A stretch of 64,000 bases of DNA from a virus, in the UHGV virus genome UHGV-1440165; one strand, given 5' to 3'. How positions within the stretch are numbered: position 1 is the stretch's first letter; every line of letters starts with the position of its first letter. Both the position numbers and the translations under genes were made by a program. Of this stretch, positions 8,345 to 50,090 are shown piece after piece. The notes beneath the pieces are model-generated. The model ran no database searches. It saw only the letters and a program-made list of their open reading frames with translations, and was not told where the DNA came from.

Positions 8345-8441
8345 TTCTTAATTCCTCTGTTTCCGCCCCTCGGGGCTATTCTGTTGCATGTATTTTCAGT
8401 TTGTTTCAAGCGGGGTAATTATACCCCGATACTACATTGAA

Positions 8442-42211: not shown

Positions 42212-42670
42212 TTAGTACCGACTATCACTGACCGTCCGGTACTTCACACCCTTGAACTGCTTGGCAACCTTGACGAACTCCATCGCAGGCATGTCCACTT
42301 TGTAGACCTTGATGCGCTGACGGTCATCCATGTTCAGAGCAGCCACATAGCGGTGGGAGCCGTCGACCACATAGTTATCAGAAGACACCCAAACCCGACC
42401 CATGGGCTTCTTGTTTCTGATGTTCTTCATGATCTTCCAGACCTTCATCTTGTTGATTTCGTTCTGGGTGAGACGGAGCGATTTGATAGGAACCTGGCCA
42501 GCATCGATAGTGATGCCGAGTTCCTCCAGGTAGTCATGGAAGGCATCCTGTTTGTCATCGTCGATTTGTGGCATAGAAGAACGCGAAAGCCCGAGGTTTC
42601 CAACAGGAATCCTCAGGCCGTTGATAATGTTCAACCAGTCTATGAAGGAAGACATGAACATGAGATTCAC
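42212..42670 (-). CDS. ParB/Srx-like nuclease domain protein
   Basis: VVDGSHRYVAA resembles ParB/sulfiredoxin-fold DGxHR motif. Confidence 0.4.
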   Translation of the reverse strand: MNLMFMSSFIDWLNIINGLRIPVGNLGLSRSSMPQIDDDKQDAFHDYLEELGITIDAGQVPIKSLRLTQNEINKMKVWKIMKNIRNKKPMGRVWVSSDNYVVDGSHRYVAALNMDDRQRIKVYKVDMPAMEFVKVAKQFKGVKYRTVSDSRY

Positions 42671-42804: not shown

Positions 42805-43092
42805 TCACACCTCGTCTTCTTCAGGTCCACCGTCAATCAGGATACGAGCGGTGTCGAAAGTTTCCCCGCCCGTGTTCAGCAGCTTGGTCAGATCGTCAAG
42901 ATATCGGACCGTGCCAAGATCAGATGACCGCGTTATAAATTCCAGCATACCATACAGGGCTGATTTGAATCGGCTGTTGTCGATATCGTTCTTGATTTCC
43001 ATCAGGCGCAAGATGTTCTCTGACTGAGTATGGCCAACACACGCCTTGTCTCTGATCATCTCCTTGATAGAACTTCTCTCTGTTGGTGTCAT
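42805..43092 (-). CDS. hypothetical protein (95 aa)
   Basis: ORF. Confidence 0.4.
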   Translation of the reverse strand: MTPTERSSIKEMIRDKACVGHTQSENILRLMEIKNDIDNSRFKSALYGMLEFITRSSDLGTVRYLDDLTKLLNTGGETFDTARILIDGGPEEDEV

Positions 43093-43466
43093 AACGAACC
43101 ACCCCCGACAGAGATCAAGAACTCTTCTTCAATGGTCGTGACCGGGCGGCGGTTGCGGGTTTCGATCATGAAGCCCCAGCCGCCGTCGGCGACGTTGCCA
43201 AAGGTCTTGACGCCAAAGGTCTTCTTCCCGTTGGAGCAGGCATAGAAGTCCAGGATGAACGGGCTACCCTGATTGTCGATCCCACGGTTTACGCCGTCCG
43301 CTACACAGCGCTCAATCATCTTCCCGTTCTTATACAGAACGAGGTCTTGGCCATACGCCTTGAAAGCATAAACGCCGTTGGTAGACACTCCGGTGATGAC
43401 AGGAGGAGCGGAAACAGCAGAGAAGGAAGCGCCCAGCAGGGCAACGGCGAGGATTAACTTTTTCAT
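43089..43466 (-). CDS. secreted protein
   Basis: Signal peptide MKKLILAVALLGASFSAVSA. Confidence 0.55.
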   Translation of the reverse strand: MKKLILAVALLGASFSAVSAPPVITGVSTNGVYAFKAYGQDLVLYKNGKMIERCVADGVNRGIDNQGSPFILDFYACSNGKKTFGVKTFGNVADGGWGFMIETRNRRPVTTIEEEFLISVGGGSL

Positions 43467-43518
43467 GATATAGTCTCTTGGTTTCAAATGGGCGGGGTAT
43501 GATTACCCCGCCGTGGGT

Positions 43519-44025
43519 TTATAGGGTAACAAGTGATACGGTAAAAACCATCGTCCCGTCAGTTGCCATTTTTCTTGAAACTGGTATGACGCGAGGCTGG
43601 CAGAATATCCATTCTTTCTCCATGGACGCCAAGTCCAGCATATCCATTTCTGATTCATCGCCTTTGTTCACAAATTTTTCTAGAGAACCATAGACATTAA
43701 GCCCCTCCGGGAGTCCGTTTCGATGTTTGTAACATATGCGGGCGACAGCTCTGGTTCCATACGATTTAGAAAATTGTTTGGCCACATGCTTCAGTTCACT
43801 GAAGCTAAGACAAGAATCCCATGTCTGAAACATGTCTCCTCGTTCAAACATCATCTCCAAACGCGCAACGTCCTCTTTAGGCAACCCGCGATAAAGTGTG
43901 GTCATCTGCGGTTCGCGTAATTCTCGCACCAGACCACGGATGGCAGGGGAAACAGTGCCAGGGCGCATGATGTGGGACTTATCATGGACGAGGTAAAATA
44001 AATCTTGAATTTGTTGATCGGTCAT
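43519..44025 (-). CDS. mono-ADP-ribosyltransferase, T4 ModA/ModB-like
   Basis: R motif TLYRGLPKE (T4 ModA PLWRGVPAE), S-x-S region DSCLSFSE, ExE-like SMEKEWIF, in ModA order and spacing. Confidence 0.55.
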   Translation of the reverse strand: MTDQQIQDLFYLVHDKSHIMRPGTVSPAIRGLVRELREPQMTTLYRGLPKEDVARLEMMFERGDMFQTWDSCLSFSELKHVAKQFSKSYGTRAVARICYKHRNGLPEGLNVYGSLEKFVNKGDESEMDMLDLASMEKEWIFCQPRVIPVSRKMATDGTMVFTVSLVTL

Positions 44026-44084
44026 GATGTATTTCCTTCATTTCAAATAGGCGGGGTAATCATACCCCACCCTAAGTTATAGAA

Positions 44085-44324
44085 TTAACTGATGTGCTTC
44101 AGAAGAGCGAAGAGGATCGCGGCCTTGGCTTTCACCTTTCCGACGACGCCTGTTTCGACATCGACTTCTTCGGCAACCCAATCTTTTCCCTTCTTGCTGA
44201 TGATAACATCGCGGCGCTGGGCATATACTTCTTTGGTCGCATACACACGGCGGAACCCTTTAGCGCGGAGCAAGCCCCAATTGCGATCAATCTCTACTGA
44301 AGTTTCGACCATTTTGTTCTTCAT
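44085..44324 (-). CDS. hypothetical protein (79 aa), basic
   Basis: ORF with own promoter. Confidence 0.45.
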   Translation of the reverse strand: MKNKMVETSVEIDRNWGLLRAKGFRRVYATKEVYAQRRDVIISKKGKDWVAEEVDVETGVVGKVKAKAAILFALLKHIS

Positions 44325-44375
44325 GATATAATCTTACCTTTCAACCTGGTGAACCCATCGTTCGCCAGTTATTGA

Positions 44376-44404
44376 ATAATAGGACATTCTTTAGAGGAAG
44401 TAAA
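44376..44404 (-). promoter_or_regulatory. sigma70-like early promoter TTTACT-N17-TATTAT
   Basis: Hexamers read directly; follows terminator hairpin. Confidence 0.6.
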
Positions 44405-44421
44405 CCCCTAAAAGTAAAAAT

Positions 44422-44439
44422 CCCCAACAAACGTTGGGG
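44422..44439 (-). terminator. rho-independent terminator (CCCCAACAAACGTTGGGG) followed by U-run on minus strand
   Basis: Perfect 7-bp stem. Confidence 0.6.
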
Positions 44440-44457
44440 ATTTAATAAAAGTTATGC

Positions 44458-44682
44458 CTATTTAATTTCTCGGCTTGAATTTTCCAGTTCTAATTTTCTT
44501 ATAGCGGAAATTCTACCTTCATCAGTTGCGGGAAACTCCCAAACAGCACGACGTCCGTTGTGAGTATCACAACTTGCCAGCCAGAAGAAATTAGAGGGAT
44601 CTTTAAACAAGACCAATTTAGGGTTAGCAATATTGTTCAGGCAAAATGGGGCGAGGTCAACAACGCGTGATACAGCAGACAT
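44458..44682 (-). CDS. hypothetical protein (74 aa)
   Basis: ORF flanked by duplicated terminator-promoter cassettes. Confidence 0.45.
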   Translation of the reverse strand: MSAVSRVVDLAPFCLNNIANPKLVLFKDPSNFFWLASCDTHNGRRAVWEFPATDEGRISAIRKLELENSSREIK

Positions 44683-44731
44683 AATATATACCTTCTTTCA
44701 ACGGACGGGAACGCCCCGCCCTATGAATTCA

Positions 44732-44760
44732 ATAATACGTATTTGCCTTATAGAAGTAAA
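44732..44760 (-). promoter_or_regulatory. sigma70-like early promoter TTTACT-N17-TATTAT
   Basis: Same architecture as 44376..44404. Confidence 0.6.
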
Positions 44761-44777
44761 CCCCTAAAAGTAAAAAT

Positions 44778-44795
44778 CCCCAACGTTTGTTGGGG
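44778..44795 (-). terminator. rho-independent terminator (CCCCAACGTTTGTTGGGG)
   Basis: Same stem as 44422 with reverse-complemented loop. Confidence 0.6.
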
Positions 44796-44802
44796 ACTTC
44801 TG

Positions 44803-45126
44803 TTATTTGCGCAGGGCAACCACGAATTCAGCGAGTTCACCCATGGTCGGGTCATCGCCTTTACTGCCCAGCCAGCCGTCGTCTATTTCGACCTGAAACT
44901 CTTCTTCTAGTTCCATTACGATTTCGATAGCATCCAGTTCATCGCCGCCGAGGTCTTTCTTGGTGCGGAGGCCAGCCAGTTTGTCCAGGGCGTCTTCGTT
45001 TTGAGATGCCACGTCGTCCAGCAGTTTGCGCTTGTCATCGTCGCGCCACAGATCCATATTCAGATTCTCTGTAGCGTACTGAGCCAGGTGTCGCATCACC
45101 TCAACATATGTCGGTTTACTGCTCAT
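44803..45126 (-). CDS. acyl carrier protein homologue lacking the phosphopantetheine-attachment serine
   Basis: DLGGDELDAIEIVMELEEEFQVEIDD versus E. coli ACP [26 protein letters not shown]; the DSL serine is Glu here. Confidence 0.65.
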   Translation of the reverse strand: MSSKPTYVEVMRHLAQYATENLNMDLWRDDDKRKLLDDVASQNEDALDKLAGLRTKKDLGGDELDAIEIVMELEEEFQVEIDDGWLGSKGDDPTMGELAEFVVALRK

Positions 45127-45168
45127 GTCACTTCTCCCAAAGAAGGGCGGGTTGCCCCGCCCGTTGGA

Positions 45169-47397
45169 TTAGATTTTGATCTCTTTCTCTGCCAGTTCGG
45201 CAGTGACCTTGTACTTCACGCCATCCACTTCAACTTCCATGGTTGACTCTTCCAGGTCGAGGTCGGTGAACCAGCCATGGCCAGCAACGATACCATACAC
45301 CACTTTAGACAGCGTCTTGTTCAGGGCGCGGACTTCAGTGATGGCCGCCTTGGCAGCAGCGTCGATCCAGTTTTCGATCAGCTGTTTCTGTACGGCTTCA
45401 GGCACAGCAGTAATAGCCGGGGACTTCACGAATGCGTCGTATTCTTTCAGTGCATTGGCGATGAACATATCACCCGCATTGAGAGCCTTTTTATCAGCAA
45501 TCTTCTTCTGTACCGCAGCGATGGACGGCAGAGAAGACGCCCCGGCGATCTTAACGTTCAGCTCACGGCTCATGTAGACGTCCGTGGAGTCCTTCAGCTC
45601 GGTCTTCGGTGAGAAGCCATAATCGCGGATACCAACACTAGACAGGTATTCTGCGGCCGCAGCGCCGTACTGAATAGCCAGACCTTTGGCATTACCCTTA
45701 CCAACCAGGGCGTCGCGATAGAACTTCAGTACCTTCTGCTTGCCTTTCAGGGCTTCCAGGCGAACGTTGTCGGCAAAGAACTGTGCAGCACTGATGTTCT
45801 TGACCATCGCACGGTTGACCAGCGGTACGCTTTCCAGGTTCAGAATGAACACTTCCGGACCAACGAACACGTGGACGCCCATTTCGATCAACTTCTGCAC
45901 AACTTCGATATCAGCCTTGAACGGCAGGGTCTTCACATTGATGATGCCGTCTTTGACGATGGTGTAGTTGCGCCACTGGAATGTGTCCAATTCTTCGGGT
46001 AGACCGAACTTCTTCTGAGCGAATTCGGGCACCGCCACAGTTCCATGCTGGATTGTACGCACACTGATGTTCGGGCGCTCAGAGTTATAGACCAGGTCGC
46101 TGATTGAGATCACGCCCAGATCGTTAGCAGGTTCAAACGACGGTGTCCACTCTTCGTGCTCAGCCAGCTTGAGAGCGAGGGCTTTACGCTCTTCTTTGGA
46201 CTTGGCGTTCGCGATTTCTTCCGCCAGCTTGTCTTCGGTATCATCGGCTTTCTGCACAGTACCGCGACCAATGCTCTTGTAGGAGAACATCGGGTGCTTG
46301 GTGGCAACAGACACGCCAGCTTCGGCCAGGTACGTCAGCACATCAACGACAGTGGTCGCATCTTCAGCCGGAACCATATTGTAGTCGATACCGTCCACGC
46401 CGCGCAGCTGATCATCAACGATGGCCTGGGTCAGATCAACTTTGATGTTGGAGTAGTCCTGCTTGGTGAAGCAGTTGCTGTACTGTTTGATGAAGCGGAC
46501 GTCGCCCGTTTTCTTCAGCGCAGCCCACACCAGGTCGGCGTCCATGATGTGTACGCCGTAGAACGCCAGCACGTATGCTGCCTGGATGTCCGTCAGCGCA
46601 TCAAGCTGGTCGATCATGTTAGGGTTGACGACCCACAGCTTCGTGACGCTCTCAGGGATGCTCACGTGGCCGATAGGATGGTCTTCATCCGGCTGTACCG
46701 CCAGCACGGTTGCTACGCCGTTTTCAACGTAGATGGCGTGAGTGTACACCACAGGAACGTCAACACGAACCTTCGGCACCGAGGACTTCAACACGTTTTC
46801 CAGCTCAGTCTGATATTCAGTCTGTCCTTCGGCGAACACGTGAGTCGCGCCGGAACGCTCGGACATCTGGGCCAGGAGTTCGCGGTTACAGTACCAGCCG
46901 TATTCGATAAAGGTGATGTTATCGAAAACAAATGGCAAGGTTTCGGCGACGGCCAGGATTTCATTGGAGCGCCAGCAGTTGTCATAACCATCGGTCATGA
47001 ACGCCAGGTTGTTGACGTAGCCGGGTTTCTTCAGGCTACGCGCAGTATCTACCGCGAGACCCAGGGGTTCGACGAAGCCAGTGCAACCGGATGGTTGCAG
47101 GAAGCGGTCGATCAGTTTGTTCAGCTCGCTCAGGTCAGACGCAGCACTGACCTGGCGGCCAGCGAACACAGTACCAAAGTCGCCACGGGATGAGAAGTAC
47201 AGGAGGCTCACTGTGTCTTCCGGTTTCACCAGGGAAGGCAGGTTCTCCTTCAGGTGCTTACGGACTTCAGGGAGCGCCCGGTACATGGAACCGGAAATGT
47301 CCACAACGATTACATGGTTGGACGGGGCAGCAGTCGCAACCGCATTCTTAAACTCCAGGGATTCAATCATCGTTATTGCCTTCTTCAGGGTTGTCAT
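45169..47397 (-). CDS. large von Willebrand factor A (vWA) domain protein
   Basis: N-terminal MIDAS motif VVDISGSM; ~740 aa; start at MTTLKK with GGAAGGTGAGG RBS. Confidence 0.55.
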   Translation of the reverse strand: MTTLKKAITMIESLEFKNAVATAAPSNHVIVVDISGSMYRALPEVRKHLKENLPSLVKPEDTVSLLYFSSRGDFGTVFAGRQVSAASDLSELNKLIDRFLQPSGCTGFVEPLGLAVDTARSLKKPGYVNNLAFMTDGYDNCWRSNEILAVAETLPFVFDNITFIEYGWYCNRELLAQMSERSGATHVFAEGQTEYQTELENVLKSSVPKVRVDVPVVYTHAIYVENGVATVLAVQPDEDHPIGHVSIPESVTKLWVVNPNMIDQLDALTDIQAAYVLAFYGVHIMDADLVWAALKKTGDVRFIKQYSNCFTKQDYSNIKVDLTQAIVDDQLRGVDGIDYNMVPAEDATTVVDVLTYLAEAGVSVATKHPMFSYKSIGRGTVQKADDTEDKLAEEIANAKSKEERKALALKLAEHEEWTPSFEPANDLGVISISDLVYNSERPNISVRTIQHGTVAVPEFAQKKFGLPEELDTFQWRNYTIVKDGIINVKTLPFKADIEVVQKLIEMGVHVFVGPEVFILNLESVPLVNRAMVKNISAAQFFADNVRLEALKGKQKVLKFYRDALVGKGNAKGLAIQYGAAAAEYLSSVGIRDYGFSPKTELKDSTDVYMSRELNVKIAGASSLPSIAAVQKKIADKKALNAGDMFIANALKEYDAFVKSPAITAVPEAVQKQLIENWIDAAAKAAITEVRALNKTLSKVVYGIVAGHGWFTDLDLEESTMEVEVDGVKYKVTAELAEKEIKI

Positions 47398-47574: not shown

Positions 47575-49239
47575 TTAGATTTGTGAGGCCAGTTCTGCCA
47601 CCAGAGGAGCAGCACGAACACGCGCATCTTCCAGAGTCTGAGTGTTGAAGAACTTGCCATCACGGTACACCAGTTGGTGTTGGTTGTCGGCGTCTTGCAC
47701 CTGATCAAAGGTGATGCCGTCAACCAACACTAGTTTACCCTGAGAGTCTTTAATGACTTTAAGGAAACCACGCGCAGACTTTTTAGTCCCGCCTTTGTCG
47801 GTCTTCGGCTCTTTGAAGATCTCGCGGAATTCACCGTTCACCTTACCAGCCGTCGCTTTCACTGCCGTTCCAGTACTGTCACGGGTGTTCATCTGGTAGG
47901 TGTAGGAACCAATACCGAAGACCACGTTAATGGAAGCGAAGTTCCGGCCAGCCAGACGACCAAAGATCTGGTCTTCACGTGCCAATGTGATAGAGTCACC
48001 GTAGATCAGACCGATGTGATCGTCCAACAGGAAGTGGCCAGTCTCAGTTTGAGTACCGCCAAAGATCTCCCACAGGCGCTGAATAGAGCCGACTGCTTCA
48101 GAACGGCTGATGATATTACTGTCGTCTGCCATCAGAGAGTTGATCGTACCTTCGCCTGTGATCAGGTGATAGGTGTTCGTCTCTTCGATGTGGATGACTT
48201 CGGTGCTGCTGGACACGCCGCTGATGTTCAGCATAGCGCGGTCTTTGAACCCCTCGATGCGGTAGCCGCCGACGATGTGAACTGGGTCGCCAGAGTCAGG
48301 GCGGATCACGACTTTGCCGTTGCGTGCCATGATAATGTCTTTCAGGCGAGGGAGATAGTCGTCGATGACCTGCCAATAGTCCCACGCATCCGACACAATG
48401 CTGACGATGCCATCAGGATACACGTCCTGCACCAGGCGACGGAAGGTTTCGAATTCTCCATTCTTCGTACCCATGCACATCACGGCGTGTTCGGTGGCTG
48501 CAACGGAGCCAGCAACGACATAGTCTTCATCGATATCCGCGCCGTAATACTCTTCAACGAAGTCCAGGGCAGGGTTGGTGTCAGTGCCTTTGAAGAACAC
48601 CAGATGGCCAGAACCGGAAGACGCCGCGTCATGCCATCCGCTCATACCACGGAAGGAGAAGTCGTGGCCTTGGTAATCGATGAACCAATGGTCCGGTGAC
48701 ACGCCTGTGGCGATAGCGGCTTTCACCATCAGTGCCTTGTAATGCAGGGCGATGGTGGCGTTCGTCATGGGCTTCCAGATCTCAGAGCTGAACACAGTCT
48801 CCAGATAGTTGGTCAGCCAGTAGAACTCCGGCAAGGTGTTGAACATCACATACACCGGAACGCCATACGGGCACATGGTGCCTTCGGGTAGAGCACGGAC
48901 TTCGATAGGCAGATAACCGAGGTCATGCAGGGCTTCGATATGCTCTGTGCCAACACGACCTGGACCCAGTACTTTGTTCATGCGACGGGCATACTTCTTC
49001 AACACCTTGGCCTTCGGGCGCTGGAAGAACGCTTCGTCAAACAGTTCGTGGAACCAGGTCATGAAACCCTGGATGCCCCAGACCACCACGCCGTTCTTCG
49101 GCAGGTGAGAGTTGAATAATTTGTTGGAACGCGGAGTCCCGTTGGAGAACACCAGCTCACTACCTTCAGGGAACTGATAGATGTGCCCTGATTTGTAGAA
49201 GTCGATTGCATGAATTGGGTCTAAGTGGCGCATGCTCAT
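47575..49239 (-). CDS. nicotinamide phosphoribosyltransferase-family enzyme (NadV/NAMPT-like; candidate NARP1 Namat)
   Basis: Full-length NAMPT-like sequence (554 aa) read from the translation; no single motif checked. Confidence 0.75.
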   Translation of the reverse strand: MSMRHLDPIHAIDFYKSGHIYQFPEGSELVFSNGTPRSNKLFNSHLPKNGVVVWGIQGFMTWFHELFDEAFFQRPKAKVLKKYARRMNKVLGPGRVGTEHIEALHDLGYLPIEVRALPEGTMCPYGVPVYVMFNTLPEFYWLTNYLETVFSSEIWKPMTNATIALHYKALMVKAAIATGVSPDHWFIDYQGHDFSFRGMSGWHDAASSGSGHLVFFKGTDTNPALDFVEEYYGADIDEDYVVAGSVAATEHAVMCMGTKNGEFETFRRLVQDVYPDGIVSIVSDAWDYWQVIDDYLPRLKDIIMARNGKVVIRPDSGDPVHIVGGYRIEGFKDRAMLNISGVSSSTEVIHIEETNTYHLITGEGTINSLMADDSNIISRSEAVGSIQRLWEIFGGTQTETGHFLLDDHIGLIYGDSITLAREDQIFGRLAGRNFASINVVFGIGSYTYQMNTRDSTGTAVKATAGKVNGEFREIFKEPKTDKGGTKKSARGFLKVIKDSQGKLVLVDGITFDQVQDADNQHQLVYRDGKFFNTQTLEDARVRAAPLVAELASQI

Positions 49240-50090
49240 TTTACACGTCCTGTATTTTCAGTTTTGAAAGGAAGACCGTCGGCGGTGATGTTCTCCCACC
49301 AGACAGTGTCGGCATACACAGCATCGTAGATCCCGTCGAAAACAGAGAGACCTTTGCTGAAGATGCCATGGGTAACGAAGAGCGTCATGTGCTTAGGCTT
49401 GTGCTTCTGAAGCTCTTTACCCAGCTCAACAAACGTGCGCCCACCGTCGCAGATATCATCAACCACAACCAGATAGCGGTCTTTGATCAGTTCAGGGTTT
49501 GTAATACTCACCCCAATGATTTCACCAGTCTTGGTGTCACGGTTCTTGTGTCCGTAGACAACAGGAACGCCATCCAATGACAGGCTGAGGGTTTCGGTCT
49601 TCTTCGCCGCGCCGCCGTCAGGGGCTACCAGCACAGCATTGTTCCCACGGATGAACCAGCCCAGATACTGGCGCACGATGTGATCTTGTGGGACCACATG
49701 GACGTTGTTGATCAGGGAAGACACAACATGGCTGTGAGGGTCTTTGATCGCCACGCGGTCAAAGTTCATGTTGTTGATGAACTCAGCCGCCCACTTCACG
49801 GACAGAGGCTCGCCGAAGTCGCAATGGCGGTCCTGGCGAGCATACGGGAAGTAAGGGATATACGCATGGAAGGTAGTCAGACGGTCCACGTTACCCAGGC
49901 CGCGCACGGCGTTTACCAGAAGCGCCAGCTCAATGAAGTCGGCTGATGATTTGATGTGAGCATCAATCACCACGTTCTGGACGTGACCGACAGGGATGCC
50001 AGCCTTTTGGATCTTGATATGTTCCTCACCACCTGGGAAGGTGAAGTGCTTGTAGAACACATCTTGGTCGTTCAATTTCAAACGAAACAT
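49236..50090 (-). CDS. ribose-phosphate pyrophosphokinase-family enzyme (Prs-like; candidate NARP1 Adps)
   Basis: PRPP-binding motif VVVDDICDGGRT; 284 aa; ATGA-coupled to NAMPT-like gene. Confidence 0.75.
   Translation of the reverse strand: MFRLKLNDQDVFYKHFTFPGGEEHIKIQKAGIPVGHVQNVVIDAHIKSSADFIELALLVNAVRGLGNVDRLTTFHAYIPYFPYARQDRHCDFGEPLSVKWAAEFINNMNFDRVAIKDPHSHVVSSLINNVHVVPQDHIVRQYLGWFIRGNNAVLVAPDGGAAKKTETLSLSLDGVPVVYGHKNRDTKTGEIIGVSITNPELIKDRYLVVVDDICDGGRTFVELGKELQKHKPKHMTLFVTHGIFSKGLSVFDGIYDAVYADTVWWENITADGLPFKTENTGRVK

Follow-up and report, generated by a model that had tools for sequence, protein, structure and literature searches.

We report that a Vi1-like phage genome carries a gene whose 168-residue product is very probably a catalytically competent, single-domain mono-ADP-ribosyltransferase (ART) of the R-S-ExE type, from the same family as ModA and ModB of phage T4. 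Among close relatives, this gene is an accessory cassette that is gained, lost or swapped for a DNA-repair gene. Below, we set out the evidence for the enzyme and for the slot that it occupies, and weigh what the host target might be.

The gene and the genome that carries it

The window, by which we mean the whole 64,000-nucleotide stretch of DNA analysed, is, as judged by nucleotide identity, an Agtrevirus-like, Vi1-like myovirus of the family Ackermannviridae. This is because a 4-kb region around the ART gene matches Salmonella phage pSal-SNUABM-02 at 96% identity and Agtrevirus phages, such as MK-13, at approximately 90%. A preliminary description, made from the letters of the window, had placed a 168-residue open reading frame (ORF) at 43519-44025. 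This ORF is present on the minus strand, with an ATG start codon and a Shine-Dalgarno sequence upstream. Within the 64-kb window, three hidden Markov models (HMMs) detected no paralog. The gene and its key codons are as follows.

43519..44025 (stop codon included), minus strand: coding sequence of the Mod-family mono-ADP-ribosyltransferase, 168 amino acids, assigned from the ORF, PHROG 832, hhalign and an AlphaFold2 model with an ART fold
44032..44038, minus strand: AAGGAAA, a Shine-Dalgarno sequence 6 nt before the ART ATG, by direct reading of the sequence
43888..43890, minus strand: codon for R46 in the LYRG motif, strand beta1; aligns with ModB R73, ModA R72 and the YRG of Vis
43798..43806, minus strand: codons for S74-F75-S76, the S-x-S motif, strand beta2; aligns with SAS in ModA, SFT in ModB and STS in Vis
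43612..43620, minus strand: codons for E136-K137-E138, the ExE motif; aligns with EQE in ModA and ModB, and EAE in Vis

Three motif strings had also been quoted, TLYRGLPKE, DSCLSFSE and SMEKEWIF, and each is found, at R46, S74-F-S76 and E136-K-E138, respectively. The ModA string given for comparison, PLWRGVPAE, is correct when checked against ModA.

Membership of the ModA/ModB family

In pairwise comparisons, identity of the phage protein (the query) to ModA and ModB is only approximately 20-28%, and single-sequence E-values are weak. BLASTP aligned the query with ModA over just 58 residues, which include the R and S motifs (E 8e-4), and with ModB over 154 residues with all three motifs aligned (E 0.02). 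To guard against circularity, we used two separate profiles, one built from the query family only and the other from ModA/ModB-type proteins only. When compared by hhalign, the two profiles matched at 99.4%, with an E-value of 4e-21 over 156 columns, and the R, S and ExE motifs were in register. Similarly, an HMM of ModA/ModB-type proteins, made without relatives of the query, singled out the ART gene among the 563 ORFs in the window (E 1.5e-7); the runner-up had an E-value of 4.4. Together with the conserved motifs, these scores bear out the ModA/ModB-like identity proposed at the outset.

Other searches were made with individual databases. The query matched PHROG 832 with an E-value of 1.1e-14. 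The precomputed label PF26816 is common to ModB-type proteins and two relatives of the query, P0003 (80% identity) and P0006 (56% identity). Neither the query nor three of its relatives had a match in Pfam-A, and this is uninformative because T4 ModA and ModB return nothing from that copy either. Scans of the query with NCBIfam and PADLOC also gave no match. A single-sequence phmmer search of the PDB produced only a chance match to citrate synthase (E 1.3). A profile search of the PDB reached Vis; note that the profile used contained ModA and ModB.

The whole 168-residue model is a single ART domain with no extra domains. The query has the features of the R-S-E clade, namely the ART fold, the beta1 arginine, the beta2 S-x-S and the ExE motif. 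It also has those of the Mod family, since homology to ModA and ModB spans the whole domain and the protein is small and single-domain. We consider the assignment to the Mod family secure, and close to certain.

Comparison with other ARTs sharpens this placement. T4 Alt belongs to the same superfamily and clade, and is apparently lumped under the PHROG 832 label, but it is four times longer, is injected from the capsid and has no significant match to the query-family profile. We ruled out membership of the Alt/VIP2 family on the score to Alt (-0.5 bits) and on length (168 versus 682 amino acids). Placement in the Mod family, and not the Alt family, is, from these sequence comparisons, an incremental result. 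The Vis toxin of Vibrio splendidus and the C3, VIP2 and iota-type ARTs, which have solved structures, share 7-17% identity with the query. These are secreted toxins or effectors that act on eukaryotic targets, whereas the query is intracellular and has no signal or translocation domain.

Catalytic residues and predicted fold

Relatives were collected from sets of 5.8 and 1.8 billion proteins. What returned was a small and divergent family, of 164-188 amino acids, with 26-96% identity to the query. In a 21-sequence alignment that includes ModA and ModB, the invariant columns are G47, S74, F85, E136 and E138. In the same alignment, conservation reaches at least 90% at R46 and W139, also in register with ModA and ModB; one distant relative, P0020, has serine at the position of the motif arginine.

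The AlphaFold2 model, made from a 19-row alignment, has a mean pLDDT of 91.4 and a pTM of 0.86. Strand 44-47 carries R46. Strand 72-76 carries S74 and is followed by a helix. Another helix ends at E136, and E138 opens strand 138-142. Hence, E136-K137-E138 is placed as an ARTT loop with the catalytic glutamate at the start of a strand. As modelled, these secondary-structure positions give the canonical arrangement of beta1-R, beta2-STS and ARTT-loop-ExE. Superposition of the predicted structures of the query and a ModB-type protein gave a TM of about 0.69. The ART fold, on which the preliminary description had staked its reading, was therefore found.

The N-terminal part of the protein is different. 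Here, the query family has a motif of its own, L-x-x-L-x-H-D-K-x-H, in which L9, L12, H14 and K16 are invariant and H18 nearly so. The motif is also kept in relatives from metagenomes and Erwinia jumbo phages. As a separate observation, the query family matches residues 8-145, at the N-terminus, of a 763-residue metagenomic protein (P0016) and six separate stretches of an 839-residue one (P0018). By sequence match, multidomain proteins such as these may also carry Mod-like modules.

A protein with this fold could instead act as a NAD+ glycohydrolase, or be an inactive relic, and modify no proteins. NADase side activity is common among ARTs, and this reading gains accordingly; moreover, going by genome comparisons, the gene is dispensable because many sister phages are without it. 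On the other side, the full catalytic triad and the acceptor-orienting first glutamate are kept down to 26% identity, and the ORF is uninterrupted in 78 of 78 phage records (coverage of at least 83%). Furthermore, the phage invests in NAD+ salvage, a poor fit with wasteful hydrolysis. We consider a glycohydrolase or relic highly improbable.

Conversely, an active Mod-type transferase is likely on these comparisons. The Arg-specific R-S-EXE motif is described for both ModA and ModB, and the R73A substitution abolishes ModB activity (PMC10468400). In our alignment, R73 of ModB is the equivalent of R46 in the query.

Existing labels and the host target

Near-identical orthologs of the query are labelled 'RNA polymerase ADP-ribosylase' in RefSeq. 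These include CBA120 orf140, Det7 gp48 and MK-13 gp146, with PM10 and SJ3 among further phages that have the label (RefSeq, pharokka-type annotation). Orthologs with the RefSeq label are 95.8-97.6% identical to the query, while most GenBank records call the ortholog 'hypothetical protein'. Hence, because near-identical orthologs are already labelled, identification as an ADP-ribosylase is not new; the family is present in RefSeq, PHROGs and Pfam. The label corresponds to PHROG 832, whose profile has 1,480 columns. Since RefSeq gives T4 modA and modB this same product name, we assume that PHROG 832 lumps Alt, ModA and ModB. We conclude that the public label takes its RNA polymerase target from the name of a lumped family, and overstates knowledge of the target.

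The two T4 enzymes resemble the query in different ways. ModB (207 amino acids) is also a single-domain R-S-ExE ART, and aligns with query residues 26-163; LYRG is identical, SF(S/T) and E(K/Q)EW are in register, and ModB is the best T4 match of the query-family HMM. It differs in that identity is approximately 21%, and the query is without approximately 30 N-terminal residues and has the L-x-x-L-x-H-D-K-x-H motif. Furthermore, ModB is encoded by a member of the Straboviridae, and the query by one of the Ackermannviridae. ModA (200 amino acids), the RNA polymerase alpha ADP-ribosylase, is of the same family, is likewise small and has LWRG, SAS and EQE; neither ModA nor the query is known as a virion-packaged protein. 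However, pairwise similarity to ModA is limited to the 58-residue stretch that holds the R and S motifs, and the residue after ExE is V in ModA and W in the query.

Two readings of the target follow from these likenesses. In the first, the query is a functional equivalent of ModA that modifies the alpha subunit of RNA polymerase, and would shift host RNA polymerase off host or early promoters. The orthologs bear the RefSeq/PHROG label, although this stems from PHROG 832, a presumed lumped profile. The best pairwise BLAST E-value is that for ModA, in the region of the R motif. In addition, such phages use host RNA polymerase and a gp55-type late sigma factor (PMC3184105). Set against this, the query-family profile favours ModB over ModA (58 versus 43 bits), no target-recognition feature is available for comparison, and the N-terminal region is unlike that of ModA and ModB alike. 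We regard equivalence to ModA as unlikely.

In the second reading, the query acts like ModB, modifies S1, EF-Tu, trigger factor and L2, and may take NAD-capped RNA as a substrate (RNAylation). The query is slightly closer to ModB, judging from the full-length alignment and EKEW compared with EQEW, and, of the three ARTs of T4, ModB is the one that RNAylates efficiently (PMC10468400). However, the gap in score to ModA is small at such divergence, and the determinants of RNAylation are 'not understood' (PMC10468400). A ModB-like role is thus a tentative suggestion that we would rather doubt than accept.

Note that the N-terminus of the query is 30-40 residues shorter than those of ModA and ModB and, going by the alignment, target recognition could differ. 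We conclude that the query is a lineage of its own within the Mod family, to which neither RNA polymerase alpha nor the targets and RNAylation of ModB can be assigned.

Neighbouring genes and transcription

The genes and signals around the ART gene are listed below.

44085..44324, minus strand: 79-residue gene (orf79), phrog_804, function unknown, immediately upstream of ART
44376..44443, minus strand: terminator stem-loop combined with a sigma70-like promoter, from promoter and terminator scans and RNA folding
43089..43466, minus strand: 125-residue protein with a signal peptide, phrog_5474, downstream of ART
47575..49239, minus strand: NAMPT, upstream of ART
49236..50090, minus strand: Prs-like PRPP synthetase, upstream of ART

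The sigma70-like promoter, TTTACT-17-TATTAT, is at 44404..44376, one gene upstream of ART, and is directly preceded by a terminator stem-loop at 44443..44418. The composite element folds with -27 kcal/mol (z -5.5). From its position, 44404..44376 is the likely promoter of an orf79-ART unit; orf79 and the ART gene probably share a transcript, and early expression of the latter is plausible. We found no transcriptome for the Ackermannviridae in the literature, and early promoters could not be defined in the CBA120 genome paper (PMC3184105).

Secreted neighbours had been noted before, and they are indeed there. The product of 43089..43466 has a typical Sec signal peptide, MKKLILAVALLGASFSAVSA, and spanin-like genes come after it. 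The 43089..43466 gene is missing from this position in CBA120. The NAD+-related genes mentioned in the same description are likewise in place: NAMPT and the Prs-like gene are on the same strand as ART, 3.5-6 kb upstream of it. Nevertheless, we ruled out specific functional coupling of ART with NAMPT/Prs, because 1,543 phage records contain a NAMPT homolog and 78 contain ART.

Some further features of the region deserve mention. The Prs-like and NAMPT genes share 4 nt (49236-49239), and their matches fall on the first 222 and last 329 positions, respectively, of a single profile, phrog_12872. This suggests that some phage records have the two genes fused or merged, and that they are translationally coupled here. 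An ORF of approximately 150 residues at 42212..42670 (minus strand) belongs to phrog_2859 and has a weak match to a ParB-like partition protein (E 1.5e-4); related records disagree on the product, which is called 'cytidyltransferase' or 'structural protein'. Its DGSHRY motif presumably resembles the ParB/Srx fold. Finally, a 23-nt inverted repeat, with 96% complementarity, has arms at 42308-42330 and 46583-46605, 4.25 kb apart. Both arms are coding, within the ParB-like 148-residue ORF and a vWA-domain gene, and the repeat is possibly due to chance.

Duplicated hairpins and a slot with three states

The ART gene is flanked by two copies of a hairpin.

44050..44071, minus strand: upstream hairpin with a GC-rich stem of 9-10 bp and a 4-nt loop, between the 79-residue gene and ART, found by pattern search
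43491..43512, minus strand: second hairpin copy, immediately 3' of the ART stop codon, at the other end of the cassette

The pattern GGYGGGGTA-N4-TACCCCRCC occurs twice in 64 kb, where 0 occurrences are expected by chance, and both flank ART. Each hairpin is within a copy of a 57-nt direct repeat, and the two copies are 74% identical. RNA folding gave -18.7 kcal/mol (z -4.0) for 43491-43512 and -18.8 kcal/mol (z -3.3) for 44050-44071. On the plus strand, the sequence preceding the GC-rich hairpin is TTTCAAAT. An Rfam search of 43000-45200 found no family matching the hairpins.

We considered two roles for the ART-flanking hairpins. A role as promoters we rejected, since TTGAAA is only approximately 9 nt from TATATC, and a promoter scan finds no site. 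A role as strong intrinsic terminators is not supported, since the U tract in their tail, CAUUUGAAA, is weak and the hairpins are absent from the list of terminator-like sites. Elsewhere in the window, at 8409-8430, is a third hairpin of this type, AGCGGGGTAATTATACCCCGAT, which is more divergent and is preceded by TTTCA. In this genome, the hairpin may thus serve as an intergenic signal more generally.

In phage SKML-39, which has no ART gene, the site is empty. The same two neighbour genes are separated by one hairpin (L005 2964-2985), and this hairpin is chimeric; its left flank is that of the ART-distal copy, whereas the loop and right flank are those of the ART-proximal copy. Because the hairpin is duplicated around ART, and present as a single chimeric copy in SKML-39, the ART gene appears to be an indel that arose through recombination inside the hairpin.

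Using the SKML-39 empty site as a query, we determined the state of the slot across the Ackermannviridae. The slot is empty in SKML-39, Ag3, Maynard and Marshall. It holds ART, with 559 additional nucleotides, in this window, MK-13, ZQ1 and fGh-Ecl02; the ART gene of CBA120 is in the same slot. In Dickeya Limestonevirus phages, the slot holds denV, encoding endonuclease V, with 469 additional nucleotides (10 nt fewer in EspM4VN). denV is likewise the occupant in Vi01/LIMEstone-type phages, and in the Kuttervirus aagejoakim. An annotated endonuclease V gene adjoins the 79-residue gene in other Kuttervirus records, such as SFP10, GG32 and S118. The upstream hairpin is found in every slot state (MK-13, SKML-39, phiD3, aagejoakim and CBA120), and is the only one of the two in denV-bearing genomes. 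Among the matches listed (60 of 78 for ART and 60 of 100 for denV), ART and denV records have no accession in common.

The arrangement recalls the PeSLs of T4-type phages, which are composite terminator/early-promoter motifs that mediate indels (PMC2839356, PMC4122927). As with PeSLs, the ART indel is bounded by a duplicated stem-loop, with a single chimeric copy at the empty site. However, the ART-flanking hairpins have no detectable promoter and a weak T tract, and so are stem-loops rather than full PeSLs. We found no description of a PeSL-type mechanism for the Ackermannviridae in the literature.

Next to the slot is a separate insertion of 356 nt, which contains a 74-residue ORF (44458..44682, minus strand; phrog_22629, unknown function). 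On each side of the insertion, at 44376-44443 and 44732-44799, is a copy of a PeSL-like composite, in which a terminator stem-loop is joined to a sigma70-like promoter; the loop of the stem has opposite orientations in the two copies. In MK-13 and SKML-39, the composite occurs once and the 74-residue ORF is missing.

Exchange of the cassette between subfamilies

A 981-nt block, at 43463-44441 in the window, is 96.1% identical to CBA120, a phage of a different subfamily. The block spans both hairpins with ART between them, as well as orf79 and the terminator. Flanking DNA is less similar to CBA120, with 71% identity in the ACP/vWA region and 80-85% in the downstream genes. Within the block, orf79 is 98.3% identical to CBA120 orf141 at the nucleotide level, and the orf79 region is only 81% identical to that of the denV-type Kuttervirus aagejoakim. 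The ends of the block coincide with repeated regulatory elements, the upstream edge being at 44441. Because the block is so much more alike than its flanks, sequence comparison points to recent lateral exchange of an orf79-ART unit by recombination at short conserved stem-loops.

A parallel observation concerns denV. The DenV proteins of Dickeya Limestonevirus (phiD3, L006 903-1358) and Salmonella Kuttervirus are 95-97% identical, and these genera are in different subfamilies. This identity looks high for phages of two subfamilies, and denV may have been laterally exchanged at the slot like ART.

Such mobility raises a third possibility for the target. The gene could be an anti-defence or host-range cassette, and its product would then disable an immune or competitor protein of the host and not the core gene-expression machinery. 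It is accessory, as ART homologues occur in 78 phage records and the surrounding 4-kb region in 278. The slot is hyperplastic, being elsewhere empty or occupied by denV, and the block has 96% identity across subfamilies where flanks have 71-85%. However, patchiness does not discriminate, because T4 modA and modB are themselves non-essential accessory genes. Phage ARTs acting as anti-CRISPRs do exist, such as AcrIF11 (PMC12421852), but we found no Mod-family member among known anti-defence ARTs. The query also has no PADLOC match, although the PADLOC library holds defence, not anti-defence, proteins. We consider an anti-defence role improbable.

A broader proposal combines several of these elements. 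The short Mod-like enzymes of the Ackermannviridae would be a distinct functional lineage, marked by L-x-x-L-x-H-D-K-x-H, with a target outside the RNA polymerase alpha/ModB set, such as a host defence or stress protein. The lineage would spread as a hairpin-bounded [orf79-ART] module, conferring a host-specific advantage and competing with denV for the slot. This is speculative, and we would not expect it to hold as a whole.

Proposed mode of action

Returning to the preferred reading, of a catalytically competent Mod-family transferase, we infer enzyme activity, arginine specificity, timing and host target as follows, with the chemistry taken from what is established for the R-S-ExE clade. 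NAD+ would be held in a cleft between two beta-sheets, with its phosphates gripped by R46 on beta1. The catalytic glutamate would be positioned by S74 of the S-x-S motif, on beta2. As nicotinamide departs, E138 would stabilise the oxocarbenium intermediate, and E136, in the ARTT loop two residues upstream of E138, would orient an arginine side chain of a host protein. ADP-ribose would then be transferred to this arginine via an N-glycosidic bond.

In the infected cell, the ART gene would probably be co-transcribed with the upstream 79-residue gene, from the sigma70-type promoter at 44404..44376. Host RNA polymerase would then express ART ahead of late genes, and the enzyme would modify host proteins during takeover. 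Candidates are RNA polymerase, the translation apparatus or something else.

Discussion

We found no literature describing this gene in the Ackermannviridae. What is new here is the hairpin-bounded slot, with ART, denV or nothing inside, and the evidence of exchange between subfamilies. The gene is otherwise of a type expected for a large virulent myovirus. For annotation, the lesson is that the label 'RNA polymerase ADP-ribosylase' asserts more about the target than is known. For the phages, it follows from the assignment that a subset of the Vi1-like group, which is used in biocontrol of Salmonella and E. coli O157, carries a T4 Mod-type enzyme. Finally, the near-isogenic natural series, in which the slot contains ART, contains denV or is empty, is a ready comparison for the contribution that the enzyme makes.
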